Positions 35,977 through 56,083 of a stretch of 64,000 nt of DNA are shown one piece after another (position 1 is the first letter of the stretch; each line of letters starts with the position of its first letter). The stretch lies in IMG/VR virus record IMGVR_UViG_3300032242_001280. One strand, written 5' to 3'. Both the position numbers and the translations under genes were made by a program. The notes below the pieces were generated by a model, which saw nothing but the letters and a program-made list of their open reading frames with translations, made no database searches and was not told where the DNA came from. This stretch comes from a virus.

Positions 35977-36412
35977 TTTCTTCTCCTTGCTTGTAAAGTT
36001 CTAATAGGGTATGGTATTGTTCATATGCATCCTTTAGCGTAGGATACTTTTCTGTGAAATATGGATCATCTGCGATAATCATCATCTTATCTGCAATCAT
36101 CATAACAGTTTTATATAATTTATCAAGATTTATTTCATTATGATTAGTTCTAATAATTGCATCACCTTTATCTTGTGGTGTAATTTGCAATTCTTTACTA
36201 GTTATTGATACTGTTGGGCTTACAGTAGACCAATTCATAGAACCAGTATTTGATAGATATCCAGTGCCGCCATTGCCTCCACTTGAAACAATTCCTACTG
36301 AATAAGAACTTGAACCAACTGCGCCGATTGCGGGTGTATATGTAGTTGAACCAGCGGCACCAATTGTAGTATAAACTGTATTAGATGGATTTTGGACGGT
36401 TTTGGCGGTCAT
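35966..36412 (-). CDS. Hypothetical protein with low-complexity N-terminus
   Basis: Ser/Thr/Gly-rich N-terminus; KYPTLKDAYEQY. Confidence 0.6.
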   Translation of the reverse strand: MTAKTVQNPSNTVYTTIGAAGSTTYTPAIGAVGSSSYSVGIVSSGGNGGTGYLSNTGSMNWSTVSPTVSITSKELQITPQDKGDAIIRTNHNEINLDKLYKTVMMIADKMMIIADDPYFTEKYPTLKDAYEQYHTLLELYKQGEESGD

Positions 36413-36737
36413 GCTTTAATTTAGCAGCATAACGGTCTGGTGTCAATTTATATTTGGTAATAAATGCATTATGCAAGTCTTTTGGATCAATCTGAAATGC
36501 CATGCAAATGCTTTGCATTTCATGATCTATGCTATCATAATCTATTTTTTCTATTTCTGGCAATCTGCTAGCTAGTCTTGCAACTGCATTTTTCATATTG
36601 TTTGGTTCTGCGCTACGAACAATATTGTCATATTTCCAACGAGCAGCCATAAGACCACGGGCACCCGCACTTACTGGTCTACGGCCTTGGATGCCTACAC
36701 TCATCGCTGCTTCGGAAATAATCTCGTTAATTTTCAT
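36381..36737 (-). CDS. Putative head internal protein (CTS-like N-terminus MKINEIISE)
   Basis: Start moved to ATG 36737; YDSID..MQ.IC......LH..F..KY..TPD.Y domain. Confidence 0.6.
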   Translation of the reverse strand: MKINEIISEAAMSVGIQGRRPVSAGARGLMAARWKYDNIVRSAEPNNMKNAVARLASRLPEIEKIDYDSIDHEMQSICMAFQIDPKDLHNAFITKYKLTPDRYAAKLKHDRQNRPKSI

Positions 36738-36738
36738 T

Positions 36739-37689
36739 TTATGCTGTTCTAATCTTTTTAACAATTGCTGGTATAAAAAGTTTTTTAAGCAATTCAGAAC
36801 TATAAATTTCTAATGTTGCTTCTTTAAATTTTACCATTTCTTCTTTTGTAAATTCAAAGAATCCTGCGCATCTTGATTTACTTTCATCCACAAATGCTTC
36901 ACTATCTGTGATTGTTTCTTGACGCTCAGCCAATGCTGTTTTCTTAGCAGCATCTTTGAATAATTCCTTATCTTCGTTGGATAATGAATCCCAAAATTCA
37001 TTTGATATTACGATAGTTGTTAGAAATAAACTATGCTTTGTATTTGTAATATAAGGAGTTTTTTCTTTTACTCTGTCAAAGCGAACTAATGTTGTTTCAC
37101 CACCATCAAAATCAATATCTGGGTTCTCATCAAAGTGCACTGATAAATCATGTCCACTGCGATCCAATACAGGATTTGCTCCTAGAATATTATATATTTC
37201 TTCTGCAATAGGGCTTTCAGAACAACTAATTGTTTTTCCCTTAATATCTTCCAAATTCTTAATTGGTGAATTTGATACCATCACTCTAAATCCACCACTA
37301 TATGTAAATGCCAAGCCTCTAACTTTGGTGTTTTTGCTTAATAAATCAAGCAAATTTTCGCCAATTGAACCATCTAGTACTCTGGTTGCATGTGCATGAT
37401 CTTTAAATAAAAATGGTAAATCAAAAATGTGAAAATTTTTATATTTTGTACCAAGTGCAGTAGTTTGAAATTGCGCCATCTGAAAACGATTATTAACTAA
37501 ATCACTAAAAAATCCTCTTCTGTTAGCAGCATTTGGATCATTATAAAATTCTGATTTTGTTAAAATTGTTACATTGATTCTACCATTTGTTTGTTCTTCA
37601 ATAATATTCTTAAATGCATTTGCTGTTCTAAGAAATAAGTGCAGTGGTTCGTGTGCAACAACCCATGTTAAATTAACTTTCTCAGTCAT
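36739..37689 (-). CDS. dctP: TRAP transporter substrate-binding protein (DctP-like), no signal peptide
   Basis: F...IEEQTNGRINV, IFDLPFLFKD..HA.RVLDG.IG, GGFR, PIKNLEDIKG, LGANP, FWDSLS. Confidence 0.8.
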   Translation of the reverse strand: MTEKVNLTWVVAHEPLHLFLRTANAFKNIIEEQTNGRINVTILTKSEFYNDPNAANRRGFFSDLVNNRFQMAQFQTTALGTKYKNFHIFDLPFLFKDHAHATRVLDGSIGENLLDLLSKNTKVRGLAFTYSGGFRVMVSNSPIKNLEDIKGKTISCSESPIAEEIYNILGANPVLDRSGHDLSVHFDENPDIDFDGGETTLVRFDRVKEKTPYITNTKHSLFLTTIVISNEFWDSLSNEDKELFKDAAKKTALAERQETITDSEAFVDESKSRCAGFFEFTKEEMVKFKEATLEIYSSELLKKLFIPAIVKKIRTA

Positions 37690-37761
37690 ATGATATTCCT
37701 TGGCTTAATGTATTTATTACTAGTTTTTTTTCATGGACTAGTCTTATTAACTGATATATTA

Positions 37762-38553
37762 TTATTTACTTAACGCTAATATATTGTTTTTTATAATTGC
37801 ATTTATAATATTGGCTACACTTTGATGCGTTTTAATTCCTGGATGGTTATCTCGCCCAAAATCTTTCCATGCAATAAAATCTTTCATCTGATCGCTTTCA
37901 TACCATACAGGTTTGGAATAAAAACTTTCTACATTAAAGTTTATTTTAACAAAATTTGTACTAACTTGGATAACAGGTATATTATGCAATTTTGCCAATA
38001 GATCAACGGTTCGAACATACTCTAACAAATGCAATTCGCTGCAGTTTTGACTCCAGTATATCATATGATTTTGTTCTTCTTCAGTCATCTCATCAATCCA
38101 GCCAGGACCACGGGTAACACGAACATAATCATCTTTAGTAGGTACAGCATATGAAAACCTAGCACAGTCTGCCCACATAACTACCAGTAATTTAACATCG
38201 ATATTTTCACATGAACTGTTAAAAAATGAATTAATGTTGCGCATTATAGCAAGATTATCACCACCTGTGCTAGCAAAGCTAAAGTTTGTTAAATTATGTT
38301 TTTTTGCTACCAGATCACAGAAGCGCAATTCTACTGGTATACCTACGCCAACAGAAAAGCTAGGACCAAAACTTGCTAATGCTGGTGTATCTCTTTCTAA
38401 TTGAGGACCACGAAACCCGTAGTCGTTAAATTTATAATCAAAATCAGGTCCACGATAATTGCCATGCCAATTTCCTGCTCTATCTGGCCCATGATGCGGC
38501 GTTTGTTTTTTAGCAGTAGGCAGTATACAAGATATGTATTTTAGTTCTGGCAT
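37762..38553 (-). CDS. SGNH/GDSL-hydrolase-like protein
   Basis: YKFNDYGFRG, FGPSFSVG (block I), NF..GGDN, DNHPG..TH (block V). Confidence 0.55.
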   Translation of the reverse strand: MPELKYISCILPTAKKQTPHHGPDRAGNWHGNYRGPDFDYKFNDYGFRGPQLERDTPALASFGPSFSVGVGIPVELRFCDLVAKKHNLTNFSFASTGGDNLAIMRNINSFFNSSCENIDVKLLVVMWADCARFSYAVPTKDDYVRVTRGPGWIDEMTEEEQNHMIYWSQNCSELHLLEYVRTVDLLAKLHNIPVIQVSTNFVKINFNVESFYSKPVWYESDQMKDFIAWKDFGRDNHPGIKTHQSVANIINAIIKNNILALSK

Positions 38554-38762
38554 TATACTTTGCCGTCTGACCTTAATTGAGGAGGACGCCCAAGTTTGTC
38601 TGTTTTGTTACCAAACTTAGCTGCTTGCTTTTGTGTTTCACCTGGATGGATATCGACCGTTAGCGCATTGGCATAACGAGGGTCTTTTGCAGCCTTCTTA
38701 GTAGCAGGAACTACACCAACACCAGCGGCTTCATCGAGGTCAAATAATTCAGTTAATAACAT
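38553..38762 (-). CDS. Putative head internal peptide (MLLTELFDLDE leader)
   Basis: Acidic leader followed by a basic peptide. Confidence 0.55.
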   Translation of the reverse strand: MLLTELFDLDEAAGVGVVPATKKAAKDPRYANALTVDIHPGETQKQAAKFGNKTDKLGRPPQLRSDGKV

Positions 38763-38767
38763 TCAAA

Positions 38768-39610
38768 TCACCACTTACGGCAAGACCAGTATCTCGCCTT
38801 AGTGCGTGGACCTGGATTCTCACAATGATGTCTAGCACGGAAACTCTTACGACGCTTTGGATTACTCTTCTTAATACGCATATTAGGATCACCAAAGTTG
38901 ACTTTCTTTACATTGCCGCTCTTTGGGTCTTTAACAAATACTTTAAACTTCTTTACATCACCACGCATTGGTTTGCCAAGTGCAACCTTACGACCATGAT
39001 ATTCTGCCTCATAAAGGTCATCCATAAAGAAACGAACTTCTTGATCGCCCTTGTATAGAACAACATCATCGTCTTCTTCTTCAACATCCCACCCCATATT
39101 ATCAAGCATCTTTGCGGCTTGGGCATGTTTCCCTTCATCGCCATTCCACCACATTTTTACCAATCGTTTTAAGGTTTGTTCATTGTTTTTTAGTGAAACT
39201 ACTTCACCTTCTTCAATGCTTTCACCATAATCTTTCTTATCGGTGTTTTCACGATAGCCTTTGGAATATGCTTCTACTTCACTTGGGTCAGTTAATTTTT
39301 CATGACTGTGACCACCATGATTGTTTGGAACAAGCTTGTGTGGATTGTGTCTGCGACCATAGTAAGAATCTGCACGACCGCGATCATATGGTGAACCATG
39401 CTTATCTTCTATATCATCTAAATTTTCAAGCATATTCATAAGTTTTTCATCGGCCATGAGGATAATGCCATCGCCATCATCGGTCATTTCCATGATATGC
39501 GTTTCTACTTCAATTGCATTGCCAAATTCTAAAAACACACCATCACCAATAGTTGGTCTGTTTTCTTGTATTGCTGTAAGTTTTTCAATTATATAACGCA
39601 TATCACTCAT
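38768..39610 (-). CDS. Modular putative internal-head polyprotein with basic C-terminal domain
   Basis: Modules GSPYDRGRADSYY..., and KKVNFGDPNM..NPKRRKSFRARHHC..ARYWSCRKW, separated by ESIEE and LYE linkers. Confidence 0.65.
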   Translation of the reverse strand: MSDMRYIIEKLTAIQENRPTIGDGVFLEFGNAIEVETHIMEMTDDGDGIILMADEKLMNMLENLDDIEDKHGSPYDRGRADSYYGRRHNPHKLVPNNHGGHSHEKLTDPSEVEAYSKGYRENTDKKDYGESIEEGEVVSLKNNEQTLKRLVKMWWNGDEGKHAQAAKMLDNMGWDVEEEDDDVVLYKGDQEVRFFMDDLYEAEYHGRKVALGKPMRGDVKKFKVFVKDPKSGNVKKVNFGDPNMRIKKSNPKRRKSFRARHHCENPGPRTKARYWSCRKW

Positions 39611-39632
39611 TTTATAAATCCTAACATATTAT

Positions 39633-40115
39633 TTATTTTGCTTTAGTGCTTACACGGATTGGAGCTTTTCCGTTGCCACCGCTGTCTTTGCCGCCACGCC
39701 CTGATGCATTTTGTGCTTTGCGTTTACGGGTAACTGCGCTCTTTTTTTCCGATGCACTCATACTACGGGCTTTTGCTGCTGGTACGCATTTGGCATAGCC
39801 ACTTTTACTGCCACTTGTTCCGCATGGCGGATGTTTGCCACCTACTTTCTTACCAATATTAACCCACTTGTCTTTAAACCACTTATGAAGATTGCTGCTT
39901 GCTTCTGGTAGAATTAAATTACCGCAGTTCATACAATAATCAACTTGTTCCAATAAAGTACTTTCACTTATTGGATCACAACTGATTTCTGTGCTCTCGC
40001 TGCGTTTCTTTTTATTCTTGACGCAGTTTGGATATTTCTTTCCAAACATAGTCTTCATGCCTTCTTTATGGTAACCTTTCCAGCATGCTTCGCCAAGAAT
40101 TTCTTCCGCTTTCAT
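39633..40115 (-). CDS. Modular basic polyprotein (MKAEEILGE leader)
   Basis: CWKGY..G.K...PNCV module plus LHKWFKDKWVNI..PCG..KCVP module, joined by Glu linkers. Confidence 0.65.
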   Translation of the reverse strand: MKAEEILGEACWKGYHKEGMKTMFGKKYPNCVKNKKKRSESTEISCDPISESTLLEQVDYCMNCGNLILPEASSNLHKWFKDKWVNIGKKVGGKHPPCGTSGSKSGYAKCVPAAKARSMSASEKKSAVTRKRKAQNASGRGGKDSGGNGKAPIRVSTKAK

Positions 40116-40954
40116 TTGGATTTATTTCCCCAGTTTGCAGCACCCTTCTTACGGCAAGTAACTAGCGCACCACTGGCATAAGCACTAGGCCATACTTTAT
40201 AACGACTTTTTACTTTATAATAACAAGCATCTTGTTTTTCATCAACACGCGATTCTGGTAGTATAAGTCCACCACAGTGTGGGCAGCTTTCATTCATATC
40301 ATCATGCGCAGCACTGCCAACGATTTCATTATAATTGTCCATGCAAAGATAATCATGGTTCTTGCTCAGCGCAATCATCTTTTCGGCAACATCGTGCAAA
40401 TCTAGATCAGTCTTTGCATCTTCACGAGCATATTCCATCATACGAAGTAGTAGCGGAATGTCTAGTGATACTGTATCTGTCTTATCTGCTTCCATTACAC
40501 TTTCATCATGCTTTGGCTTCTTGCCACGCTTTTTCATATTAATAGCAATGGCTGCTTGTTGTGCTGCGCTACTTGCTTCACCAATACTTTTCTGCGTACC
40601 ATCAATGTCAAATGTATTCTTTATTTTCTCAAGTGTTTTTAATAAAATTTCGCGATTTGGTTCTGCTGGATTCATTCCAAATTCAGCACGAGCAACATCA
40701 ACTAATTTCAAATATTGTTCAGGCTCAGCTCCGCCCATCATTCCACGAGAATTTTTTGAAATAACTCGCATGATAGCTTGGTTGCGTTTGTTTGGTGGGA
40801 GTTTATCTGCAGTAAAAACTTCGTCGATTGCTGCTGATATTGTATTGGCATTGCGAACTAGTTGTTGCGCAATATGCGGATTTCTTAAAAGATTAGTGTT
40901 CTTTTGTATATCAAGTTTATTAGATGATTCTGCAATAATATCTTTTATTCTCAT
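40112..40954 (-). CDS. Modular polyprotein (MRIKDIIAE leader)
   Basis: Modules AAQQAAIAINMKKRGKKPK, DIPLLLRMMEYAREDAKTD and DACYYKVKSRYKVWPSAYASG, each preceded by x-x-E. Confidence 0.65.
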   Translation of the reverse strand: MRIKDIIAESSNKLDIQKNTNLLRNPHIAQQLVRNANTISAAIDEVFTADKLPPNKRNQAIMRVISKNSRGMMGGAEPEQYLKLVDVARAEFGMNPAEPNREILLKTLEKIKNTFDIDGTQKSIGEASSAAQQAAIAINMKKRGKKPKHDESVMEADKTDTVSLDIPLLLRMMEYAREDAKTDLDLHDVAEKMIALSKNHDYLCMDNYNEIVGSAAHDDMNESCPHCGGLILPESRVDEKQDACYYKVKSRYKVWPSAYASGALVTCRKKGAANWGNKSK

Positions 40955-41550
40955 TATACTCTCGCAGGTTCTCTTGCTGGCTGCGCGGGTGCAGTTGCAG
41001 CAGTAGCAGGTTTTACTTGTGGTTTCTGTGTGATAGTTTGGTTGTAAGCTGGTTTCAAAGGTTGCTTTTGTTGCTGCGCTGGTTGCTCTGGCGGTAACGC
41101 ATTTTTTGATTTAAGATAGTTATACAGTTTATTGCCACCGTACAGTAACGCAATAACACCAGCAACTGGCAACGCATATGAAACTGCTAGTTTAGCAAGA
41201 CCAGTTATTGCTGCGTTTGGCAAATTATCGCCAATAATCATAGAAAGATCACTTGCAGCTTTTGCAGAATCTGCCCATGGAGTTATTTGGTTTGCAAGAA
41301 TTTTTCCTGTTGCAGCAGGATCAGATACCAAATTAAAAGTAAGATTGGCAAGATTCCATGCACCTTTTGGATGAGTAGTGGCTGCTGCCAATGTAACAGC
41401 TTTTATTGGATTTGTCACAACCCAAAAAACGCCCTTAGCGCCTTTTTGCAATCCCCATGCAAGTGCTTGTAATATTTTATCACCAGATGCTTTCATATCT
41501 GCTTCGGATAATAATTCATAATCTTCTAAAATTATTTCGTTGATTTTCAT
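40954..41550 (-). CDS. Putative internal/membrane-active protein (MKINEIILE leader)
   Basis: Start at ATG 41550; hydrophobic YALPVAGVIALLYGG; Pro/Gln/Ala-rich tail. Confidence 0.6.
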   Translation of the reverse strand: MKINEIILEDYELLSEADMKASGDKILQALAWGLQKGAKGVFWVVTNPIKAVTLAAATTHPKGAWNLANLTFNLVSDPAATGKILANQITPWADSAKAASDLSMIIGDNLPNAAITGLAKLAVSYALPVAGVIALLYGGNKLYNYLKSKNALPPEQPAQQQKQPLKPAYNQTITQKPQVKPATAATAPAQPAREPARV

Positions 41551-44348: not shown

Positions 44349-47300
44349 TTACGATAGCTGTCTTACTGTCCAACCTGTAAAACCTGAATTATTCACTAGC
44401 GGCGTGAAATGGCGTAGTGCATCTTGATAGGAATTAAATTCTAATTCTTCGGATATCTGCGTTCCATTTTGAACAAATAAAGCATATGTGCCACGACCAC
44501 CAGGATTTGCAATTCTAGGTGTGTTATTAGTTACACTAATATTGGGATCATTTGCCCAATCTGGCGTAGGTTCAGCAGCAGGTTGATTTACAATAGCCTC
44601 GCCTGGTCCCATATAGAATAGTTCTTCTTCAGCGGTGTCTGGATCAATGGCATACATCGCCATGCCCCTAATTCCACCTAATGTGCCACCCCAACGCATT
44701 GAACTGCTATAGCGTCGTTGAACACTATTAGCATACTCTTTTGCTTGTTCTGGATTGTAGAAAGTAAATGAAGTAATATTTGCTCCAGTATCTGTGTATT
44801 TTAACACATACCTTACAGAACGACCTGTAGCAGCACCAGAAGCAGTTGTACTTGATTGTGGTGGTGCCGATGGTGGTGATGGCGCACGGTCTTCGCCACG
44901 AGTGGTAATACGCATCATTTCATCACGCATATATTGTAGTGAATATTCATCTAATACACGAACAGAAAGACGATCCGCTCGCAAGCCGCTTACGCCCCAG
45001 TTTACGCCCCAGTGTTTCTCTATTACTGGTATAGCTAGTTTTTCTATTTCACTTGAATATGTTGAATACATCTCAACCTGTGGTATAAACACCATAGTTT
45101 TACTGTCTGTTTCATTTGGATTGGTAGAATAGTATTGAACAGTCACTAAACTATAACCAGGATAGCGTAGGGCTATATCGCCCAGCGGCAGTTGACGAGC
45201 GTTAGCAAACTTTATTGCCGTCTCAATCATATCATATGGTGCAGTGCCGTTGATTTTTACAACATTTTCACCGTCTTCATTTTCCAAGAAACCATCAACT
45301 GGACCAGACCCAAGTGGTGCAACAGGCTTACGACGCTCTTGAGCAGTGCGTAATTCTTTTACAAGTTGTTCTTTGTTTATTGCGCCAGCAGTATATTTGG
45401 CAAACAGTTGCATCGTGTTATCTTTTTCACTGATACCGCCGCTTACAAATTTATACAGTTTCTTTTGATATTCTTGACGAGCATCTTCGGTATCAGCGGC
45501 TGCTCCCATAACACGAACATAACGCAACATAGTCTTGCGAATTTCTTCGTATTGCTCAAAGTAATTGCCGCCAGCACTGCGGAACTCAATATAGTTTGGC
45601 TTGATGTTTACGCTTACATAACGGTCGCCACGAGGAACCAACAGTTTATTGATTTCTTTTTTAGCAATATCTTCCAATCCACTACGCATCTTATCAAGGA
45701 TAGCAGGAATATTCTTTCTGCCACTTCTGCCACGCACTTCACGCTTGGCTTGGTCAAAACTACTCTTTGTCCATCGTGAACCAGCACGACCAAATGCTTT
45801 TAACACATACTCATCACCAAGCAACATAATCACTTTAAGATGGTCAATGTTTTCCATTGTTTGGTTAGGGATACTAACACCAATATGGAAACCAGTTGTG
45901 CGATTAGTATAATAATCATTGCTCTTTGCCCAACTGAAAACATTTTCTAACGCAGCCAAACCATCTTCCAAGTTCATTGGCGGTGATACAAGTTCAATGC
46001 CACCATCGCCATCATTGTTTGGACTATCAAGCGAACTATCTGGTTCAAATATCCAAGTGGTTTCATCACGGTCTGCTCCGTGATAACCGCTGCTTGCTCG
46101 TGCCTTATAACCAGTTGTGCGTCTAAAATCATCAACGACATCGCCAATGTCTTCGGTTGGTTCTTCTCTACTGCTGCTAAATGTATAATGCGGCCAAGTT
46201 AGCGATTCACGAGTATTGCGATTTACCCAACGCATCCAATCATACATATCACCAATGTTATTGCGATAAAGGAATTGACGCCAAATACCTTCTTCGTTTT
46301 CGCTCATCCAATTTTCACGAACGCTGTCTTTGGCATCATCAAGTTCACGCTCACTTGCTTCGTCCGCAGGAGTATCGCCTAATTCTTCTTGAATTGCATC
46401 TTTCCAATCTGTGGTATTTTCATAATTATCGTCATAATATTCAGATTGATAATCACTAAATGCTTCATAGAATAATTCTAGCGCACTTTCAACCTCACGG
46501 CGGGTATTGTGATCGCCAGCAAAAAAATCCATAACATCACGCTGACGATCACGATATGAAGCCGTGCCAGGAAAATCCTCATTGGTATCCATATCCTCTT
46601 CCTCTTCCTCTTCGCCTTCTTCGCCACCAAGACCAGGAATATACATTTCAGTTTCAAAACCAACTTTCATACTCTTGGCAAATGGTGTTTGGGAAAACTT
46701 TTCAAGAGATGTAGGACTCATATTGATTTCGTTAAGGATACTTTCTTCAAGGCTTTCTTCTCTATTTGGAACTTCTGCCAATTGCCAAGGTGCTGCCAAA
46801 TTATGTTCCTCGGCATAACTTACAGCATAACGACGAGCACCAGTTACACTTGCAGCGTTAAATGTATGAACAACACGACTTTCACTATCCAAAATATTAT
46901 ATGTTGTGCCATTTGTAGCAGTGATGTTTGCTTGTGGTCTTGGGATAGCATTGCCCGCAATATCATAACCACGATCAATTTCTGCTTGTGTATATTGGCG
47001 AGGTTGTTCTGGTTGTGGGCTTGGTTGAGGAATTACTTGACCTTGCGTATCCCATAGATTATTGTTGTTTGGTGATCTTATAGCAATACTTGCTAATGGT
47101 AGACCATGTTCTTGCGCAAATCTTTGGGCTGCTTGCGTTGCTGCGTAAAAACTTTGTGCTTGTGTTGCTAATAATTCTGTGCCATCGCTACGGTTTACAA
47201 CAACATAGGTTGCTGCGCTACCACTAGGCAATTGTAGTGCCTGTGTACCTGCACCAGGTATTGGTGTATTTGTGTCATCACTTGCAAGGGTTAGAAACCA

Positions 47301-49223
47301 ATCGCTATCACGATAGCCATATTCACGGGTCATACGAACAGCAATATCTCGTGCTTGCTCATTATCTGGCGCACGAAACTGTGTAACCGCCATTTGATTA
47401 TTTGCTAAGCGAATCATATACATTGGTTGCATAGATAATACAGGTCGGTCACCGCCAATTGATAATGGTTGGCGTGTTAGAATATCACCTGCTTGACCAT
47501 CACGGGTATCTTTTAACGCAACTAAGTCAAATGAACGACCACTTGCTCGCACTATGCGTGCGGCAATATCATATACATCACTGTAAGTAATTCTTGGAGA
47601 TACTACAAATTCTTGAATTACGCCACCAGTTATACGACTAATAATCTGGAATGTGATACCACCAATACCATCATAATCTACATGCGGTTCATCATCAGCC
47701 GCTAGTTTAGCATACGGATCACTTGACTGTGGTCGGTCTGACTTTGCTTTCTTGGCAAAATCACGCTTGCTTTGTGCATTCTTAATATAACTTACCAATG
47801 CTGTACGAGGCAGATTTCCAGTAGCAAACTGTGTAAAATACTTGATAGTATCAGTTTCATCTTTCTTATCAGCAGTTAACAGTTTCGCAAATTTCTTTTG
47901 ATATTCTTTGCGTTCCATCTCTGGATGTAGTGCGATATTCATAGCATATACAACACGGAGCAGTGTATTCACTACTTCATCAGTATTCATATCAAGCCAA
48001 TTGCCGCCTGGTGAACGAAACTCTACACGATTATCTTTAGTATTGATAGAGGTAAACTTATCAGTATAACCATTATGAATAAGTTTGGATGCTACGGTAT
48101 TCAAGCTCTTACGCATAGCATCTACGGCTTGGTCTGCTTTTGTAGGGTTTTGTTTAATGAATGATGCAATCTGGTCAAAAGCACTGCGAGCATAAGAATT
48201 GCCAAGACGACCAAACTTTTCAAGAATATACTTGTCGCCTAAAAACAACGCAAGTTTAACATAATCAAGTTTATCTAACTGATAACCTGGTATAGAGATA
48301 TTCATATGCAAACCAGTTTTATCATTGGTATAAGCATTGCCATCTTTTGCCCATGCTTTGACTTTATTAATTTGGTCAATCATAGTTGGAATATCAAGTG
48401 GCGGTGATACGAACTCTAAACCTTCGCCACCTTTGCCACGAGTAGGTGATAGGCTGCTATCTGGTTCAACCACATACGCATCGTTTGGCTTTGCAATACT
48501 ATGATAACTACCACTCTTAATAGTTTTCATACCAACAGCACGGCGGAAATCACCTACATCAACAGTAGAACGAGTTCTGCGGTCATATTCATCTGGTTCA
48601 GTCCAAACTGGCCAAGATAGCCCAAGATTGCTATCATTTGCCAAATCACTCATGTAATTACCACCATAGGTATCTTCTAAAAATTTTTCCAGATAATCAT
48701 CTATGTTATCATCATCTTCAATATTATCACGCCAAGTTTGATAGTATTCTTTTCTAAATGTTTCGTATGGATCAATGGCATCTAATTCACTAAACAGTTC
48801 TTGTTGGTTTTTATAATCACGACCATAACGCTTGTCAATAAAATCTTGAATACGATCACCTGCCCAAGTGTCCCATAGACCACTACCAATATAATCTTCC
48901 CATGCATCCTTCATTAAATCAATTGCACGATTTACATCACGGCGACTATTGTGATCGCCAGCGAAGAAATTCATAAGGTCTCGTTCTAAGTTGCTCCAAC
49001 TGACAGTAGAAACACGCTCATCTTGGTCATAATCTGGTTCGCTATCAAAATCTTCATATGGATCATAATCATCGTCCTCTTCTTCTTCAAGATTAGTGAC
49101 GATAAGTTCAAATTCAAGACCTGCCTTAGCATTGGGAATCTTTGCCACCGCCGCACGAAGGGCTGCTGGACTCATATTCACTTCATTTAGGATTTCTTCA
49201 AGGATCAGGTCTTTGTTTTTCAT
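44349..49223 (-). CDS. 1624-aa polyprotein with two amidoligase (COOH-NH2 ligase, Amidoligase_2-like) domains and repeated small accessory domains
   Basis: Two sets of G[LF]E[FT]E / EPDSSL / [LI]E[FL]VSPP / TG[LF]H / EFRS.GG motifs; start MKNKDLILEEILNE at 49223, 5 nt after GTAAATA. Confidence 0.8.
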   Translation of the reverse strand: MKNKDLILEEILNEVNMSPAALRAAVAKIPNAKAGLEFELIVTNLEEEEDDDYDPYEDFDSEPDYDQDERVSTVSWSNLERDLMNFFAGDHNSRRDVNRAIDLMKDAWEDYIGSGLWDTWAGDRIQDFIDKRYGRDYKNQQELFSELDAIDPYETFRKEYYQTWRDNIEDDDNIDDYLEKFLEDTYGGNYMSDLANDSNLGLSWPVWTEPDEYDRRTRSTVDVGDFRRAVGMKTIKSGSYHSIAKPNDAYVVEPDSSLSPTRGKGGEGLEFVSPPLDIPTMIDQINKVKAWAKDGNAYTNDKTGLHMNISIPGYQLDKLDYVKLALFLGDKYILEKFGRLGNSYARSAFDQIASFIKQNPTKADQAVDAMRKSLNTVASKLIHNGYTDKFTSINTKDNRVEFRSPGGNWLDMNTDEVVNTLLRVVYAMNIALHPEMERKEYQKKFAKLLTADKKDETDTIKYFTQFATGNLPRTALVSYIKNAQSKRDFAKKAKSDRPQSSDPYAKLAADDEPHVDYDGIGGITFQIISRITGGVIQEFVVSPRITYSDVYDIAARIVRASGRSFDLVALKDTRDGQAGDILTRQPLSIGGDRPVLSMQPMYMIRLANNQMAVTQFRAPDNEQARDIAVRMTREYGYRDSDWFLTLASDDTNTPIPGAGTQALQLPSGSAATYVVVNRSDGTELLATQAQSFYAATQAAQRFAQEHGLPLASIAIRSPNNNNLWDTQGQVIPQPSPQPEQPRQYTQAEIDRGYDIAGNAIPRPQANITATNGTTYNILDSESRVVHTFNAASVTGARRYAVSYAEEHNLAAPWQLAEVPNREESLEESILNEINMSPTSLEKFSQTPFAKSMKVGFETEMYIPGLGGEEGEEEEEEDMDTNEDFPGTASYRDRQRDVMDFFAGDHNTRREVESALELFYEAFSDYQSEYYDDNYENTTDWKDAIQEELGDTPADEASERELDDAKDSVRENWMSENEEGIWRQFLYRNNIGDMYDWMRWVNRNTRESLTWPHYTFSSSREEPTEDIGDVVDDFRRTTGYKARASSGYHGADRDETTWIFEPDSSLDSPNNDGDGGIELVSPPMNLEDGLAALENVFSWAKSNDYYTNRTTGFHIGVSIPNQTMENIDHLKVIMLLGDEYVLKAFGRAGSRWTKSSFDQAKREVRGRSGRKNIPAILDKMRSGLEDIAKKEINKLLVPRGDRYVSVNIKPNYIEFRSAGGNYFEQYEEIRKTMLRYVRVMGAAADTEDARQEYQKKLYKFVSGGISEKDNTMQLFAKYTAGAINKEQLVKELRTAQERRKPVAPLGSGPVDGFLENEDGENVVKINGTAPYDMIETAIKFANARQLPLGDIALRYPGYSLVTVQYYSTNPNETDSKTMVFIPQVEMYSTYSSEIEKLAIPVIEKHWGVNWGVSGLRADRLSVRVLDEYSLQYMRDEMMRITTRGEDRAPSPPSAPPQSSTTASGAATGRSVRYVLKYTDTGANITSFTFYNPEQAKEYANSVQRRYSSSMRWGGTLGGIRGMAMYAIDPDTAEEELFYMGPGEAIVNQPAAEPTPDWANDPNISVTNNTPRIANPGGRGTYALFVQNGTQISEELEFNSYQDALRHFTPLVNNSGFTGWTVRQLS

Positions 49224-49239
49224 GATATTATTTACCCGT

Positions 49240-52200
49240 TTATTGTAGCCATGCACCAGAAGCAGGTTGGTCAAGCACGATTGGTGGTATGCTATGATCA
49301 TCTGGCTCCAAGTATAAACTTTTAGCATCAAAGGTACTTGAAAGACGATCTGCATATGATTTTGCCCAAGCATATGCTTCACTTGGTGTAGCAAAGCGTT
49401 TTGGGTCAGAGAGATTAGAACCATATGGCGGTTCGCCAATCCATACTCTATAAATCTTTGTGCTAGCAACAAATGCTGATCTTGCTGCTGCATCTGCTTT
49501 ATCGGTCTGACGCTTCTGCAAGCGCATCTTCAACACATTTTGGTCAATTAAACCACTGGCATACATGGTAAAGTTTGAAAGTTGGTCATCATCTTGTGGA
49601 ATATGTTTGGCAATCATTGCATAAAGTTTTTTAGCATATTCTTCACGATATGCCTGTGGATCAGCCGCAATTGCCATTACCTGAACATAACGCAACACAG
49701 TATTCTTGATGTCGTCTATATGTTCCATGAAGTTGCCGCCAGCACTGCGGAACTCAATGTAATTTGTTTTTATATTCACACTTACATAACGATCAGTACT
49801 AATTGAACGATTTATAATCTCTTTTGCAACTTTTGCTAAGTTGGTGCGCAGTTTTTTTGCATACTCTTGTGGTGTTGTTGCGCTGCCTCGTCTTTTTAAC
49901 ATCTTTTGTATTTGTGTAAACATACTTTTAGTATATGCGTTACTGCCACGATCAAATAGGTCTAGCACATATTGATCACCAAGCAGCATTACTACTTTGA
50001 GTGGGTCAACTTTTGCTTGTAGTTCTTCTGGCAAACTAACTCCAACATGGAAACCAGTTGATGTATTGCCATAATAACCGTTTTGTCCTGCCCATTGGAA
50101 GAACTTATCAAGTGCTGCTATACCTTGTTGCAGCGGCATTGGCGGTGAAACAAGTTCAATGCCACTATCATCACCACTAATACTGCCATCAGGCTCAAGA
50201 ATCCAACTAGTAGCATCGCGTTTTGCGCCATGATATCCACTACTGACTTTTGTTTTAAAGCCGCTGTACTCATTCCAATTCTTTGCAAGTTGCGCTATCG
50301 TTATCACGCCACTAGGTTGCATATTTGGTTTTAAATAAGGGAACCATGCTCCACCACCGCCATATTCTGCATATTTTAGAACCCAATCGGATATGTGTTT
50401 AACATTTTCTGACTTTAGAAATTTTTTCCATTGCTTTTCATAATCTTCTGTGGAAAGTTCATTTATTGTTTTTGTAAAAAATATTGCTCGCGCCCGTGCA
50501 CCCAATCCATATGGATTGTTTGGTTCATCGGCAATTCTATCTCTTATCTCTCGCTGGCCTGACCAACCACTTCTGCGCCCGCCAAGATCGTCATAGATTT
50601 TTTTAGCAATTACTTTTAAATTTTCTGGTTTCAGCATTTCATCAATCATGCTAGGATTTTTCTCAACTATATAATCAATGAATGAATGTTTCAAGGTCAA
50701 TAAGTCATCATTTATTGCTGACAAATCACTTTCACCAGTACCAGCATCCTTATACCAGTTTAAGACTTCATCTTGCCATGTTCTAGTAATTGGAAATTTA
50801 ATATCTTTAGTCATATCCCAATTTCTTGCATCTTGGCGAGGATCAGATTCATCGTCATCTTCATCTTCTAAACCAGGTACTAGCATTTCTGCTTCAAATC
50901 CAATAGTCATTGCTTGTGCTTGTGGGGTGGCAGCAAACTTTGCCAATGAACCAGGTGACATGTTTACTTCATCAAGCTCACCGACATAATCTACTTCGCT
51001 GCCGCCTGTATCTGGCTGAACCCAACGGTCCCAAGGAAAAACCGCTACCTGACGGTCAGGATAATCATTACCACCGCCTACAGTTCCTATGATAGAGCCA
51101 GCATGTTCGCCAACAGAACTTGGACCAAGCAACTGCATAAACTTTGCTTTTTCTTGTGGTATTCTAAAATCATGACTTGAAGTTGCATTTCCTCTATTGC
51201 CATAATAAACATCTACGGCAATATTCGGTCTTGATAGTGCAGATGCTGCATAAACTCTATATAATTTTTTAAGACTACCTAATGTTCCCTCTAGAAAAAA
51301 TGTATTGGGAAGATTTACAAAACGAACATATCCTTGGGTAAATGCTTCTTCATATCCATCAATGTCGTTATCATAAAGCCATGACAGATGTTCTTCTGAA
51401 CCAACATATTCTACACGACGATTAGGCAAAATCCAACCATGTGTTTCATTTGTATCAAGTGCTTCTTCTACACTTTCTTTTTTGGCAGTGGCAGCACGGA
51501 TTTTAGCAATAGCACTTTGTGCGGCATTATCACTCTTGGCTGGTTGTTGTGCTTCTGCGTCCCATTTCTTGTGTAGGAATGTTAATAAACCTTTTAGGTC
51601 TGCAACACCAATCTTACGCATAGCAGCAATAATTTTATTAGCCTGATCATAGCCACTATTGCCTGGCTTGCGAGCATTTGAAATTTCATTGCGCAGACCT
51701 AAGTCATCAGCAAACTGACCGCCGTTCCAATAAGTTAAACTATAACGCAGTTCATTTGCTCGCTTGGATAACTCGCTGCGACTTTTCTTGAATATTAGTT
51801 CTAACCACGGACCTAACATTCGCTTACCATAATTACTGGTACTTACATAACCAGTTTTCTTTTGGCCACGAATTAAATCTTGGGCTTTGCTTACTGGTAT
51901 TGCTCGCTTGGTGTCCTGTAATTTCCATGCATTTTCGTTGCTATAGAGATATGTTGGTAAACCACGCTTCTTTGCTACAATCATCAACTGACGAGTAGTT
52001 GGACTTGCAAACTCACCTGCTTCTTTAAGCAGAATATGAACTGCTGTAATCGCATCTGCTGGTATTGTTGGCTCACGAGCAAATATACGGTCTTCGCTTT
52101 CACTGTGTTTTTGCTTATCAAATCCTGCCCAGTAATCAATAGCCTTCACAGGATAACGACGATTAAACCAATTACCATCAAGATTAAACATAACGGCAGT

Positions 52201-54918
52201 GCCACCTGTTAACTCGTGATAGCCGCCTACTTTGCTGCGTGTAGTAGATAAGAAATAGTTATATCCTTTTGGCGCATACGGTGCTTCTACGGTGCCAGTA
52301 GAAATGCTCAACATAAACTCATTGTTCTTGAGAATGTTTAATGCTGCACCCACGCTGCCTGTATAATGGAACAACACTGGTGATGCTGCTTCATCTAAAC
52401 TTTCTGTTTCTTCTAAATCTTTACGATGACTACGCTTGTAGTATGAACACCAACCATTTGCCGCAATCTTGCCACTAACAGCCGAACAACCGTGTGGAGG
52501 ACGCCACATAGTGCAGTGATCACAGCGTTGACCATTGCGAGGCATAGCCTGATACTTTGCTTCGGCTTTGGTTGATTTTTCTGCAACTTCATTCAAGCCT
52601 TCCGCCACACTTTCTTTTACTGCAAATTGCGCCATATCTGCAATAGGAATAACCTTTGCATTTATACTTGGTAATTTATTCAATATAGCTTTGTGTGCTC
52701 TATGGGTGCCATCGGCTATCCAAAACTGCCCATTTTGTCTTTTAACAACAATAATTGGATATTGCAAGTCTGCTTTTTGCATCCGAGCCATAGATTGTGT
52801 TTCATCTTCTTCACGACCTGCAATTTGGTCAGCAAACTGTTTTGGATCAACTTTAACAACAGGATATTTGTCTGCTAATGCAACTAAATCTCTAATTTTA
52901 AACTTAAATGATTTTCCATCTATGCCAATACCTGCTTCTTGTTCAAATCCTTCACCTTCTTCTAATTCTTCATTAACTTTGTTTTTACTGATTTCTTCAA
53001 TATCACTATCAGGAACTAATCGTGCAGGTATACTATCTTTTTTAAGTGTTTTATAAGCCCAAAATCTATGATGACCATCTAATACTTGATACCCACCTTT
53101 GTATTTGCGGACTAAAATAGGTGGTATATTTTCATTCTTCTCTAGACCATCTATAATTTTCGCAACATTTGCTTGGGCTTTTGGTAATTTCATCTTTTCA
53201 TCTGGTTCAAACCCAACAAGTTCTTTTGTAGGAATGTTGATGATAGGCAGTGAATCAAACCCGCTATCATCTACTTCTGCACCAAAATAGTCTGGATCAG
53301 TATATAGTTTTACTTTACCTTCGTTTGCCAAGTCAGGAGCAACCATGTAACTGTTCTTGCTGCCTGGCGGAAACTCAAAGCGTTGCGCACCCTTTTCACG
53401 AGCAGCAGCACGAGCCTTCTTAAACTCCAGTGTCCACCAACGACGATTAGTATAATCCTTATTGCCCATATAGGCTTTTGGATCAGTAATACGCAACTCG
53501 TTCCATTGGTCAGGAGTTAGGTCTTCGTTTATTTGAACGCCCAACGCTTGCAACATAGCACGAGCAACTACACGATCTTTTTCTTTTTCTACTTCTGGCA
53601 ACTGACCATAAGTTTGTTGGGCAAGTGCATAACGCTTCTTTTTCTTATCGGGAATTGTAGGCGCATCTAACTGCAACTTGCCCATATAATCAGCCACTGC
53701 AGTCTTATTCCAACCATCGTGGATTGCGCTAGCAATAGCGTCAACATCTGTTATACCACTATCAATCATACGCTTGGCAGCGGTTGCACTTTCAATGTTC
53801 GCTAACCAACCAAAGTTAGCACCTGGTGTGGATAACCCATAATGATAAGCATCATCTAGGGCTTTATCACTTATGTGAGCAAGTTGCTCTACTGATAGGC
53901 TTTCAGGGATAATGCTTTCAATAAATTTACTTTCATTTGAGTTTCGGGTCAAATTGTAGCGCACTGCATATCCATCATCAATAGTTCTTGCATCGTAACC
54001 AAGAGATGTGGCATAACGGTCTACAAGTCTATTGTATAGCTTGGCACGGCTTTGTTTGTTTGATCCAGATTCAACTTCTTTGTCAACAGAGAAAGTTATT
54101 TGTAATGGTTTGTGTTTTTTAATAAATTTTTGTATAGCATTTAAAACAGTTGCAAATATTCGTTGTGCATCACCTTCACCAGTGACATCTTGGCTGTTGT
54201 TTCTCCAGAACTCAACTTGCCATTTGGCGTCGCCTTCGTTATTAAACATGACACTTAAATTTGTTCCATCTGGTAATGGAACTAGCATATCATAGCTACC
54301 AAATTCACTTTTTTCCCACTTGCCTCGGTAAGGTTTATCAAAGGTTTCTTCCATACTTTCGCCAAGTCCCATACCACGGCGAACTGCTTGAAATAGCGTC
54401 TTGTCATCAACCGTCATATTTTGTGGCACACGAGTAGCCCGTTCAAACGCATCTGGATCACCATCTTCTGCAGCTTTTCTTGCATTGGTTGCGCTTGTTA
54501 AACGAGGACTTTCCATAAAAGAAAGTGGTTCAAATTTATAATAGCCGTGCGCTACTTCTTTTCCATTGTACTGTTCCAGTACTGGTCGCATGCTTGCCAT
54601 GTCATCTTCACCAGCCACAAAAGTGGCACTGCGGAAACCTTTGTCATAAAGATATGCGGCTGCTTGTAGGAATGTTTTGATGTTTGGGTCTTCAACTAGA
54701 TGTCCTTGAACTTGTGGATATAATAATTTAACCCATGCTATTTTTTCTACATAGGTAAGTGGATTTTTCTTTGCATCATGGCTTTTACTTAAGAATAGCG
54801 CCCATGCGCCTTGTTTTGCCACGCTAGCAATAGTATTAATTAAACCTTCGTGTCCATAATGTGGAGGATTCAGACGCCCGAAAGCAAACGCGATATGAGG
54901 ATTATTAGCCATTTTCAA
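49240..54918 (-). CDS. 1892-aa polyprotein: HIGH nucleotidyltransferase, unknown domain, RyR, 2x ParB-like, HiPIP, ART-like, unknown domain, amidoligase
   Basis: FGRLNPPHYGH; AIHDGW..YGQLPEVEKEKDR; VLDGHHR and IADGTHR; CDHC..C..GWC; LFHYT..LSTTRS..ESEDR; GFEAE/EPDGSI/IELVSPP/TGFH/EFRSAGG. Confidence 0.8.
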   Translation of the reverse strand: MKMANNPHIAFAFGRLNPPHYGHEGLINTIASVAKQGAWALFLSKSHDAKKNPLTYVEKIAWVKLLYPQVQGHLVEDPNIKTFLQAAAYLYDKGFRSATFVAGEDDMASMRPVLEQYNGKEVAHGYYKFEPLSFMESPRLTSATNARKAAEDGDPDAFERATRVPQNMTVDDKTLFQAVRRGMGLGESMEETFDKPYRGKWEKSEFGSYDMLVPLPDGTNLSVMFNNEGDAKWQVEFWRNNSQDVTGEGDAQRIFATVLNAIQKFIKKHKPLQITFSVDKEVESGSNKQSRAKLYNRLVDRYATSLGYDARTIDDGYAVRYNLTRNSNESKFIESIIPESLSVEQLAHISDKALDDAYHYGLSTPGANFGWLANIESATAAKRMIDSGITDVDAIASAIHDGWNKTAVADYMGKLQLDAPTIPDKKKKRYALAQQTYGQLPEVEKEKDRVVARAMLQALGVQINEDLTPDQWNELRITDPKAYMGNKDYTNRRWWTLEFKKARAAAREKGAQRFEFPPGSKNSYMVAPDLANEGKVKLYTDPDYFGAEVDDSGFDSLPIINIPTKELVGFEPDEKMKLPKAQANVAKIIDGLEKNENIPPILVRKYKGGYQVLDGHHRFWAYKTLKKDSIPARLVPDSDIEEISKNKVNEELEEGEGFEQEAGIGIDGKSFKFKIRDLVALADKYPVVKVDPKQFADQIAGREEDETQSMARMQKADLQYPIIVVKRQNGQFWIADGTHRAHKAILNKLPSINAKVIPIADMAQFAVKESVAEGLNEVAEKSTKAEAKYQAMPRNGQRCDHCTMWRPPHGCSAVSGKIAANGWCSYYKRSHRKDLEETESLDEAASPVLFHYTGSVGAALNILKNNEFMLSISTGTVEAPYAPKGYNYFLSTTRSKVGGYHELTGGTAVMFNLDGNWFNRRYPVKAIDYWAGFDKQKHSESEDRIFAREPTIPADAITAVHILLKEAGEFASPTTRQLMIVAKKRGLPTYLYSNENAWKLQDTKRAIPVSKAQDLIRGQKKTGYVSTSNYGKRMLGPWLELIFKKSRSELSKRANELRYSLTYWNGGQFADDLGLRNEISNARKPGNSGYDQANKIIAAMRKIGVADLKGLLTFLHKKWDAEAQQPAKSDNAAQSAIAKIRAATAKKESVEEALDTNETHGWILPNRRVEYVGSEEHLSWLYDNDIDGYEEAFTQGYVRFVNLPNTFFLEGTLGSLKKLYRVYAASALSRPNIAVDVYYGNRGNATSSHDFRIPQEKAKFMQLLGPSSVGEHAGSIIGTVGGGNDYPDRQVAVFPWDRWVQPDTGGSEVDYVGELDEVNMSPGSLAKFAATPQAQAMTIGFEAEMLVPGLEDEDDDESDPRQDARNWDMTKDIKFPITRTWQDEVLNWYKDAGTGESDLSAINDDLLTLKHSFIDYIVEKNPSMIDEMLKPENLKVIAKKIYDDLGGRRSGWSGQREIRDRIADEPNNPYGLGARARAIFFTKTINELSTEDYEKQWKKFLKSENVKHISDWVLKYAEYGGGGAWFPYLKPNMQPSGVITIAQLAKNWNEYSGFKTKVSSGYHGAKRDATSWILEPDGSISGDDSGIELVSPPMPLQQGIAALDKFFQWAGQNGYYGNTSTGFHVGVSLPEELQAKVDPLKVVMLLGDQYVLDLFDRGSNAYTKSMFTQIQKMLKRRGSATTPQEYAKKLRTNLAKVAKEIINRSISTDRYVSVNIKTNYIEFRSAGGNFMEHIDDIKNTVLRYVQVMAIAADPQAYREEYAKKLYAMIAKHIPQDDDQLSNFTMYASGLIDQNVLKMRLQKRQTDKADAAARSAFVASTKIYRVWIGEPPYGSNLSDPKRFATPSEAYAWAKSYADRLSSTFDAKSLYLEPDDHSIPPIVLDQPASGAWLQ

Positions 54919-54955: not shown

Positions 54956-56083
54956 TTAATTTGGTGTCCAGCGATGCCTTGGCACTAATTTTATGTTTGG
55001 GTCGCCATAGTGAACATAGCCTTCGCCGCCGCGCTGACCTTTGGTAGATTGCTGAATATCACCGCCTTCGCTATCTAATTGGTCAATAATTTGATTTTTG
55101 ACTGTACGAAGATTCTCTAGTGTAGCAAAGGTTGCAATAAAACCTTTTTGGTTTTGCGCAATCCAGTCGCTAATCTTTGCTTGCATTGGCGCACTTTGTT
55201 TGCTGCTACTGTTTAACCAGTTTACAAACTCACTAGCAAGATCGTTTGTTCTACCAACTCTTGCCATTTGATTATTAAAGTTATAAAGAACGCCTTTAAA
55301 CCCTGCCATTTTCATGGCAGCGAGGCGGTCATCGTCCAAGAAGTTATCAATTACATTTTTGTTTGCAGCAATATACTTTTGTAAGTCTTGTAACTTTTTT
55401 GTATCTACTTTTATAGGCTGTTGTGCATATCGTGGACCTAACACAATCAATCCTTGTGTTTGATTAAATTTAGTGAAGTCATCTATTGGTTGTTGTTGAT
55501 CATCGCCCATTCCAAATTGTGGAAAGAAAGCATGCCCAACAACGGCTGCAGTTGCTTTTGAAATACGCTGCCCAAGTTCAGTTGTTGTTGGTACGCTATA
55601 TGTTACATTGTTTGGTGTAAAGGTATATGAATCATTTTCCATTTGTGGGCGGCGCATAAACAACAAATCGCCATACACATATCCACGAAAATCTTTAGGG
55701 GTTGCTGCTTCGAATAGCGCCCATAAACTAGCATACTCGTTTGCAAAACGCATACGCTCATCTTCTTTATCTGGCGTTACATTGCCAGTGCTCATAATAA
55801 ATTTTACAAGTTCTTGTGGACTGCGACTTTTACCACTGTCATTTGGCTTTAACCAACCGTTGTGCCCAACCATTATAAAACTGCCATCTGGTTCGCGTCC
55901 CCAATATACTTGAGGTTTACCGTCCCATTTCCAACGAATTTGAGTTGGGCTACGAGCAAGATCACTGAGGCGACTAACTGCTGTCTCTGCTCCAGCACTG
56001 CCGCTGATAAGCACAAGGTCTTCTACATGCTGAAATGCACGACCAACTTTTGGGGCTTCGTTAATAATTTGGTTTATAAACAT
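54956..56083 (-). CDS. Ligase-like covalent nucleotidyltransferase (DUF6267-like) with CTS-like leader MFINQIINE
   Basis: KWDG (motif I), YGDLLF (III), GEGYV (IV), IKLV (V); QHVED N-terminal motif. Confidence 0.65.
   Translation of the reverse strand: MFINQIINEAPKVGRAFQHVEDLVLISGSAGAETAVSRLSDLARSPTQIRWKWDGKPQVYWGREPDGSFIMVGHNGWLKPNDSGKSRSPQELVKFIMSTGNVTPDKEDERMRFANEYASLWALFEAATPKDFRGYVYGDLLFMRRPQMENDSYTFTPNNVTYSVPTTTELGQRISKATAAVVGHAFFPQFGMGDDQQQPIDDFTKFNQTQGLIVLGPRYAQQPIKVDTKKLQDLQKYIAANKNVIDNFLDDDRLAAMKMAGFKGVLYNFNNQMARVGRTNDLASEFVNWLNSSSKQSAPMQAKISDWIAQNQKGFIATFATLENLRTVKNQIIDQLDSEGGDIQQSTKGQRGGEGYVHYGDPNIKLVPRHRWTPN

Follow-up and report, generated by a model that had tools for sequence, protein, structure and literature searches.

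HiPIPs (high-potential iron-sulfur proteins) are textbook periplasmic electron carriers of proteobacteria. A domain of this family lies inside a giant multi-domain protein encoded in a 64,000-nucleotide stretch of the virus record IMGVR_UViG_3300032242_001280, called the window below. The explanation we favour, with a probability of roughly 0.55, is that phages captured a HiPIP, that it sits as a cassette in the giant protein, and that it is cut out by a prohead protease, carried in the head and injected. By sequence and modelled structure, a genuine minimal HiPIP of the PioC type occupies residues 776-838 of the giant protein; the domain, of about 50 residues, is predicted to hold one oxygen-stable [4Fe-4S] cluster. 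Judged from the sequences compared, the capsid-cargo reading is well supported for the phage HiPIP family and weaker for the window copy.

A minimal HiPIP inside a giant phage protein

The gene and its relevant parts are located as follows; residue numbers follow the TTG-start open reading frame (P0002) at 49240-54918 on the minus strand.

49240..54912, minus strand: gene of the giant mosaic (polyvalent) protein, 1,890 amino acids (open reading frame, translation, Pfam and PHROG domains)
52405..52593, minus strand: HiPIP cassette, residues 776-838, the moving unit of about 189 nucleotides (nucleotide homology block, translation checked)
52438..52578, minus strand: HiPIP core as first described, residues 781-827 (translation, PF01355, PioC match, model)
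52447..52524, minus strand: stretch with the four predicted cluster-ligand cysteines (translation, PioC alignment, 20-sequence alignment)
52522-52524, minus strand: C799, predicted cluster ligand
52513-52515, minus strand: C802, predicted cluster ligand
52486-52488, minus strand: C811, predicted cluster ligand
52447-52449, minus strand: C824, predicted cluster ligand
51469..52404, minus strand: cassette after the HiPIP, residues 838-1150, predicted ADP-ribosyltransferase (ART)-superfamily fold (DarT/Tpt1-like) with a helical tail (AlphaFold, Foldseek)

The biological start is the ATG at 54912 on the minus strand, which yields 1,890 residues; the protein collection contains the same form, from a contig that is 167,842 bp or longer. 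A preliminary description of the window, made from the letters alone, had placed a HiPIP domain within a phage polyprotein, and the domain claim was borne out by all the sequence and fold tests run. Translated on the minus strand, 52438-52578 gives the 47 residues which that description quoted, and these correspond to residues 781-827 of the open reading frame. The acidic linkers said to border the segment are likewise real (...SVAE-GLNE-VAE upstream, KDLEE-TESLDE downstream). The plus-strand reading of the interval runs into stop codons and does not produce the quoted peptide.

The profile search proposed there as a check returned a match above the cut-off of 22 bits: PF01355 reaches 23.7 bits when the whole protein is searched and 28.2-29.6 bits for the excised domain alone, with 29.6 bits and an E value of 8.7e-7 on residues 760-860. 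A phmmer search against the Protein Data Bank (PDB) matched PioC (6xyv) at E 1.6e-9, gap-free over residues 2-51 of 54 and with all four cysteines aligned; the spacing C-x2-C-x8-C-x12-C is that of PioC. In an alignment of 20 sequences, comprising phage-type HiPIPs and relatives exported by the twin-arginine translocation (Tat) pathway, the invariant columns are a lysine, the tyrosine before the first cysteine, the four cysteines, a valine, a glycine and the Gly-Trp before the last cysteine. The signature around the aromatic residues that shield the cluster in HiPIPs is among these columns, with Y789, G822 and W823 invariant in phage and Tat-exported relatives alike. An AlphaFold model built on the phage and Tat-exported alignment reaches a predicted local distance difference test (pLDDT) score of 82 overall and more than 90 in the core. 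When this model was compared with the PDB by Foldseek, ranks 1-18 were all HiPIPs. The model overlays solved HiPIPs at 1.1-1.3 A; the root-mean-square deviation from 1isu is 1.1 A over 55 columns, and the template modelling (TM) score against 6xyv is 0.66/0.77.

An exhaustive search collected 935 relatives at E<=1e-3. Among the 150 closest, 58 carry an N-terminal signal, Tat-type or other, as defined by a twin-arginine motif or a long hydrophobic N-terminus; the remainder are signal-less and include the phage-type sequences. The closest cellular relative of the phage domain is 60% identical to it. Two metagenomic proteins of about 155 residues among the closest relatives (P0042 and P0045) have two tandem HiPIP domains, and P0042 bears a Tat signal. 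The window HiPIP has no export signal, the typical trait of Tat-exported periplasmic HiPIPs, because it is internal to the giant protein; the preliminary description was correct on this point. The window holds no second HiPIP domain. A HiPIP-like cysteine pattern on the plus strand at 39705-39776 was dismissed as a chance occurrence in a non-coding frame.

A discrete and mobile cassette

The giant protein consists of at least ten cassettes. It runs from a cytidylyltransferase through a DUF6934-like domain, cassettes of unknown kind and two ParB-like domains to the HiPIP, which is followed by the ART-fold domain, further unknown cassettes and an amidoligase with a C-terminal tail. ParB_N scores 22.5 bits, under its cut-off of 26.3, and the ParB-like PHROG families match at E 6e-11. 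Thirty-eight metagenomic giant proteins have cassettes in common with the window protein, in different orders, and comparison with them places recurrent breakpoints near residues 190, 339, 463, 533, 652, 775, 838, 1150, 1270 and 1315. The window protein therefore has the defining properties of a polyvalent protein, namely unrelated effector domains joined in one polypeptide and shuffled between orthologues. Neither a MuF nor a peptidase domain was detected in the 1,890 residues, and no zincin-like autopeptidase. Other cassettes have homologues in Atu_ph07 and Dickeya JA29, both annotated as hypothetical.

The HiPIP occurs in 25 other giant proteins at about 85-95% identity. At the DNA level, homology in more than 25 viral contigs covers only residues 775/776-837/839, a block of 187-190 nucleotides with 88-94% identity, and this block is separate from the following one at 842-1007; the HiPIP is therefore a discrete mobile unit. 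Its neighbours vary, with at least 11 upstream and at least 6 downstream contexts. In these jumbo phages, then, the HiPIP is a self-contained recombining cassette inside giant multi-effector proteins.

The cassette that adjoins it in the window (residues 838-1150) was modelled with a pLDDT of 76. The top Foldseek matches are DarT, Tpt1/KptA, pierisin and other ARTs, with weak E values of 2e-3 to 1e-1, and H-Y-T, S-T-T-R and E-S-E-D motifs are invariant in this cassette. On the modelled fold, it may be an analogue of T4 Alt.

Stand-alone phage HiPIPs bear capsid-targeting leaders

Among 50,697 deposited phage records, the only homologue of the domain is QPX48026.1 of the T4-like cyanophage S-SRM01, a protein of 67 amino acids annotated as hypothetical; a megablast of the giant gene against the same records found no match. 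QPX48026.1 is 54.5% identical to the window HiPIP over the domain and starts with MKSFQEFLFE. A scan of viral contigs matched 87 stand-alone HiPIP loci, of which 80 were kept, each 66-67 residues long. Without exception these 80 begin with M-K-[STN]-[FYL]-x-[ED]-[FY]-[LI]-x-E, as in MKSFQEFLSE, and five of them begin with MKSYQEFIAE, identical in nine of ten positions to the T4 capsid-targeting sequence MKTYQEFIAE. Those ten T4 residues are enough to load foreign proteins into T4 heads. The mature part of the stand-alone proteins starts at the same alignment column as the cassette, and four of five large records with a stand-alone HiPIP encode a gp21-type protease.

A second stand-alone type has the leader MKIEDLFEE and an (I/V)-D-E site directly after the domain, and is extended by GH19, LysM-GH19 or ParB-like domains. 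In a quick and weak tree of 50 alignment columns (support of 80 at the key fork), 76 signal-less and only 5 signal-bearing rows, as judged by the N-terminal definition given above, form one group. Such clustering suggests one or few captures from cellular HiPIPs, with a single capture not proven. The idea that phage HiPIPs became more basic for life in a DNA-filled head was abandoned: the tails differ (p 0.004), the cores show no difference (p 0.91), and the PioC-like group is already basic.

The domain has also been joined to proteins of the head interior in unrelated phages. On a 62.5-kb contig of one such phage (L130), positions 8001-8948 encode a 315-residue fusion of ChaB, HiPIP and a Peptidase_S78 prohead protease; the surrounding head module also has portal-like, adaptor and InPase genes, and the free InPase gene lies next to the fusion gene. 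Elsewhere the HiPIP is inserted in a MuF-like head protein or fused to InPase. As a side observation, in P0062, P0069, P0063, P0074, P0162 and P0086 it is found N-terminal to GH19, LysM-GH19, a ParB-like nuclease or InPase, or inside a MuF-like protein. The contigs of P0052, P0043, P0088 and P0074 are only 0.6-1.6 kb long and uninformative on context. Since the GH19 and LysM partners act on peptidoglycan, the periplasm, where the family natively resides, may be the site of action of some injected HiPIPs.

Candidate cleavage sites at the cassette edges

Both edges of the HiPIP cassette carry motifs of the kind cut by the T4 prohead protease.

52579..52611, minus strand: upstream junction where (L/I/V)-x-E motifs, three or four in number, overlap (VKE769, VAE773, LNE777 and VAE780), candidate cleavage sites
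52390..52419, minus strand: downstream junction with LEE837 and LDE843, candidate cleavage sites

T4 gp21 cuts after glutamate, at ITE-6 and LTE-619 of Alt and at LIE-9 of gp21 itself, and aspartate at the cleavage position blocks processing (PMC5694885, PMC9026906). A glutamate with an aliphatic P3 residue is present at each edge of the predicted product (LNE777/VAE780 and LEE837/LDE843), as a motif. The arrangement recurs in relatives. In 10 of 11 distinct upstream contexts, (L/I/V)-x-E and then A or S directly precede the conserved AEKSTKA start, and downstream L/V/F-x-E is found in every relative at this position, ahead of unrelated cassettes. Cleavage at these sites would release a HiPIP of 57-60 residues and 6.5-6.8 kDa with an isoelectric point (pI) of 9.3-9.5, within which there is no (L/I/V)-x-E.

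Similar motifs gather at the other junctions. Within 8 residues on either side of the ten junctions of the window protein, [LIV]xE occurs 14 times against 5.3 expected from composition-preserving shuffles (z 4.65), and the control motifs [LIV]xD, [AGS]xE, [KR]xE and [FYW]xE show no enrichment there. Domain interiors show the opposite tendency, with 11 [LIV]xE against 16.3 expected and 37 [LIV]xD against 22 expected. No such split was found in ordinary enzymes of the same window, in which both motifs are mildly and equally enriched; the interior excess of [LIV]xD over [LIV]xE may be the trace of selection that disfavours protease sites within the domains. The motif [LIVF]xE[ASG] is present in 42% of the family's 208 junction contexts, compared with 9% of random and 19% of Glu-matched windows, and junction glutamates have L, I or V at P3 twice as often as other glutamates. 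A gp21-type Peptidase_S77 is encoded in all three related viral records, including a complete 338-kb genome, where its gene lies at 146086-146511, and the protein starts with an LIE site at residue 7. The nearest record (G001), a 51-kb fragment, holds no protease and is uninformative. Taken as sequence motifs, the junctions fit processing by a prohead protease.

A model for capture, packaging and delivery

The material above can be arranged into the following scheme. Phages would have taken the domain from Tat-exported bacterial HiPIPs, with loss of the export signal. The giant protein would be made in the host cytoplasm, where the host Isc or Suf machinery would load the cluster; loading in this compartment is plausible because Tat-exported HiPIPs mature in the cytoplasm before export. 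It would then be built into the prohead core, and a T4 gp21-type protease would cut after the glutamate of (L/I/V)-x-E at the cassette edges to release a basic peptide. More speculatively, the peptide would stay in the head and enter the cell with the DNA, in the manner of the T4 internal proteins and Alt, and could serve early in infection either for one-electron redox chemistry or as a compact module for binding. A cofactor protein carried in this way has to survive an oxic virion and passage through the tail, and for that a buried, oxygen-tolerant cluster and a very small size would be well suited. As to function after entry, we prefer a redox-active effector or decoy to an inert stable binder, and either of these to iron delivery.

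The preliminary description had likewise proposed a polyprotein cut at its Glu linkers and carriage of the product in the capsid, where it might act as an iron carrier, redox buffer or electron shuttle. For cleavage and carriage, still a hypothesis, the junction motifs, the protease of relatives, the leaders and the head-protein fusions give substantial comparative support; the window copy is leaderless.

A broader claim, that HiPIP in its holo-[4Fe-4S] form is packaged in the heads of several unrelated lineages of tailed phages and injected by them, is offered more tentatively, as one we would not quite bet on. The lineages concerned would be the T4-like cyanophages, these jumbo phages and the phages with HK97-type proteases.

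Evidence against, and alternative explanations

A number of observations weigh against packaging and cleavage. The window protein starts with MANNPH... and has no N-terminal capsid-targeting leader, whereas homologous giant proteins start with 11-residue leaders ending in F/L-x-E and followed by A, such as MTLSHRTIFNE and MTIINSTLKE. The position where a leader would be expected is occupied by a separate gene, which has a leader of its own, a TAA stop and a 43-nucleotide spacer.

54956..56083, minus strand: upstream gene, DUF6267 (ligase-like), 375 amino acids, capsid-targeting-like leader MFINQIINE followed by A

Loading of the window copy is therefore less certain than that of its relatives. 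Supply of a leader by read-through from this gene was rejected in view of the stop codon, the spacer and the different frame. In other phages DUF6267 and the cytidylyltransferase are joined in one 764-residue protein (PHROG 455), which suggests a split or an insertion in the window phage. Further, the giant gene lies among genes of replication and nucleotide metabolism and not among head genes, and no gp21-type prohead protease gene was found in the window. The acidic linkers are rich in glutamate, so that part of the [LIV]xE signal at junctions is compositional: the motif is already present in 44% of Glu-matched random windows, compared with 65% of junctions. The conserved linkers could serve recombination instead of cleavage. 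None of the results points to a particular task for a high-potential cluster in a cytoplasm, and HiPIPs are not known from the group to which Synechococcus sp. KCZYC6, the cyanobacterial host of S-SRM01, belongs.

Several of these points would be expected if the giant protein were never cut, and acted inside the cell or were packaged intact, with the HiPIP sensing redox state or oxygen for neighbouring enzyme domains, among them the ParB-like and ART-fold cassettes, or holding them apart as a rigid spacer, and the Glu linkers as flexible joints and points of recombination. The missing leader, the non-structural gene neighbourhood and the partly compositional motif signal all suit such a protein, and for most of the polyvalent proteins in Iyer et al. 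2017 no cutting into separate domains is known. We nevertheless regard it as unlikely, although it is the strongest of the alternatives. The diversity of contexts (at least 11 upstream, 6 downstream) leaves the HiPIP without a constant neighbour and so speaks against a partner domain of its own; the same domain stands alone behind a T4-type leader, with a mature start that aligns to the cassette edge; and neither the doubled frequency of L, I or V at P3 of junction glutamates nor LxD in place of LxE inside domains would be expected of simple joints.

The other two alternatives concern what the domain does, and both appear improbable. The HiPIP fold might have been kept while the domain binds zinc or no metal, leaving a small, protease-resistant, basic filler or binding knob like T4 IPI*. 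Four-cysteine mini-domains often bind zinc, the T4 internal proteins are small and basic, as the predicted peptide is with its pI of 9.3-9.5, and there is no evident redox partner. Yet conservation extends beyond the cysteines to the tyrosine and the G-W-C, invariant in phage and Tat-exported relatives with the same gap-free spacing, and a cellular relative is as close as 60% identity; moreover, the core shows no charge difference from cellular HiPIPs and so gives no sign of a re-purposed surface. Alternatively, the domain might be an auxiliary metabolic electron carrier that serves phage Fe-S enzymes or host respiration in the infected cell, without being virion cargo. Electron carriers such as ferredoxin and plastocyanin are common in phages, and the window encodes five radical SAM paralogues that might be served. 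PMC7462912 puts HiPIP potentials at +50 to +500 mV, on those figures far too high to reduce radical SAM clusters, and service to the five enzymes was rejected on that ground. The domain also lies inside a 1,890-residue effector chain and is not a free gene, its stand-alone forms have capsid-targeting leaders and other forms are fused to prohead protease or MuF, and without export the periplasmic partners of cellular HiPIPs would be out of reach.

Neighbouring genes and the source phage

The window comes from a freshwater jumbo myovirus whose DNA polymerase is closest, at about 45%, to those of Atu_ph07, Phosso and GAP32; related viral contigs reach 338 kb and have terminal repeats. Two further features on the minus strand bear leaders.

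44349..49223, minus strand: second giant cassette protein, 1,624 amino acids from the Met at 49223, amidoligase domains, leader MKNKDLILEEILNE followed by V
36381..41550, minus strand: gene run in which four genes (36381-36737, 39633-40115, 40112-40954 and 40954-41550) have M-[KR]-x-x-[ED]-I-[IL]-x-E leaders

Capsid-targeting-like leaders are thus present on both genes that flank the giant protein, and at least six window genes start with leaders resembling the T4 capsid-targeting sequence. In a relative, the product of 39633-40115 opens a giant protein (P0014) as its first cassette, which indicates that free genes and cassettes are interchangeable. Three amidoligase (PF12224) domains are spread over the two giant proteins, at 44349-49223 (minus) and 49240-50970 (minus). 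An ATP-dependent protease of 745 residues (phrog_4871, E 2e-249) is encoded at 59045-61282 (minus), a few genes upstream of the giant proteins. At the other end of the window, 6144-12666 (plus) holds a tandem array of five radical SAM paralogues, of which two have SPASM domains, followed by two unknown genes at 12645-15531. This is an unusually large set of Fe-S enzymes for a phage and may be a peptide- or nucleic-acid-modification cluster.

Relation to known systems

The closest structural counterparts of the domain are PioC of Rhodopseudomonas palustris TIE-1 (6xyv, 54 residues) and the short HiPIPs, such as that of Rhodocyclus tenuis (1isu), which have the same length, ligand spacing, tyrosine and G-W-C. 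PioC and the phage domain are 40% identical without gaps. PioC is exported by the Tat pathway and, once in the periplasm, carries electrons from PioAB to the reaction centre, whereas the phage domain is signal-less and lies inside a giant protein; unlike PioC, the phage lineage alone has a TMWR(P/D)P stretch after the second cysteine.

As head cargo, the phage HiPIPs would most resemble IPI, IPII, IPIII and Alt of T4, small basic proteins with a ten-residue leader that are cleaved behind the glutamate of (L/I)-x-E and injected along with the DNA. The likeness lies in the stand-alone leaders, up to nine of ten residues identical to the T4 sequence, and, for Alt, in the ART fold predicted in the adjoining cassette. 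None of the T4 internal proteins is known to have a cofactor, however, and here many cassettes share a 1,890-residue chain in a leaderless copy. In S-SRM01 the HiPIP has the same mature start as in the window but is a free-standing gene with a T4-type leader. Polyvalent proteins, in which one polypeptide carries between two and 15 unrelated effector domains (Iyer, Burroughs, Anand, de Souza, Aravind 2017, PMC5512222), offer the other parallel: their effector domains are shuffled, they include ParB-like and InPase domains as well as MuF fusions, and they are predicted to be delivered together with the DNA. Processing of the window protein, which has no zincin-like autopeptidase, would by comparison rely on the prohead protease. 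The ejection proteins of phiKZ and SPN3US also form a large head-internal mass cut after Glu by a T4-related prohead protease; they differ in their sites, (S/A/G)-x-E with a small instead of an aliphatic P3, belong to another phage lineage, and have no reported Fe-S cargo.

The polyvalent-protein survey (PMC5512222) mentions neither HiPIP nor iron-sulfur nor amidoligase, and the S-SRM01 paper does not mention the QPX48026.1 gene, HiPIP or iron-sulfur. In full-text searches, no relevant literature was found that links HiPIP with phage, cyanophage, virion or jumbo phage. HiPIPs, T4 internal proteins and polyvalent proteins are each known, then; what appears to be new is their combination, in which a cofactor-bearing redox protein is the apparent head cargo.

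Implications

A signal-less HiPIP is found in three putative capsid-loading devices, namely behind a T4 targeting leader, in cassette chains with predicted cuts at Glu, and in fusion with prohead protease or MuF. For annotation, the HiPIP, with the amidoligase beside it, is new to the polyvalent-protein network, and the motifs at the cassette edges suggest that giant polyvalent proteins can be strings of cleavable cargo. Because S-SRM01 is in culture and the HiPIP leader is almost identical to the T4 packaging leader, the capsid-cargo reading is directly testable.

If the broader claim of loading by several phage lineages is true, HiPIP would become the first known virion cargo that is a redox protein with a cofactor, and redox chemistry and a metal cofactor would be added to the known injected phage effectors. 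Its action would fall in the first seconds of infection, when it might, for instance, donate or accept one electron, act as a redox decoy, or inhibit a host defence or redox sensor. Each capsid would hold tens to thousands of iron atoms. The 'Ferrojan horse' idea has so far been about tail fibres; here the horse would be capsid-borne, and the virions of abundant freshwater phages would contain a countable source of iron.

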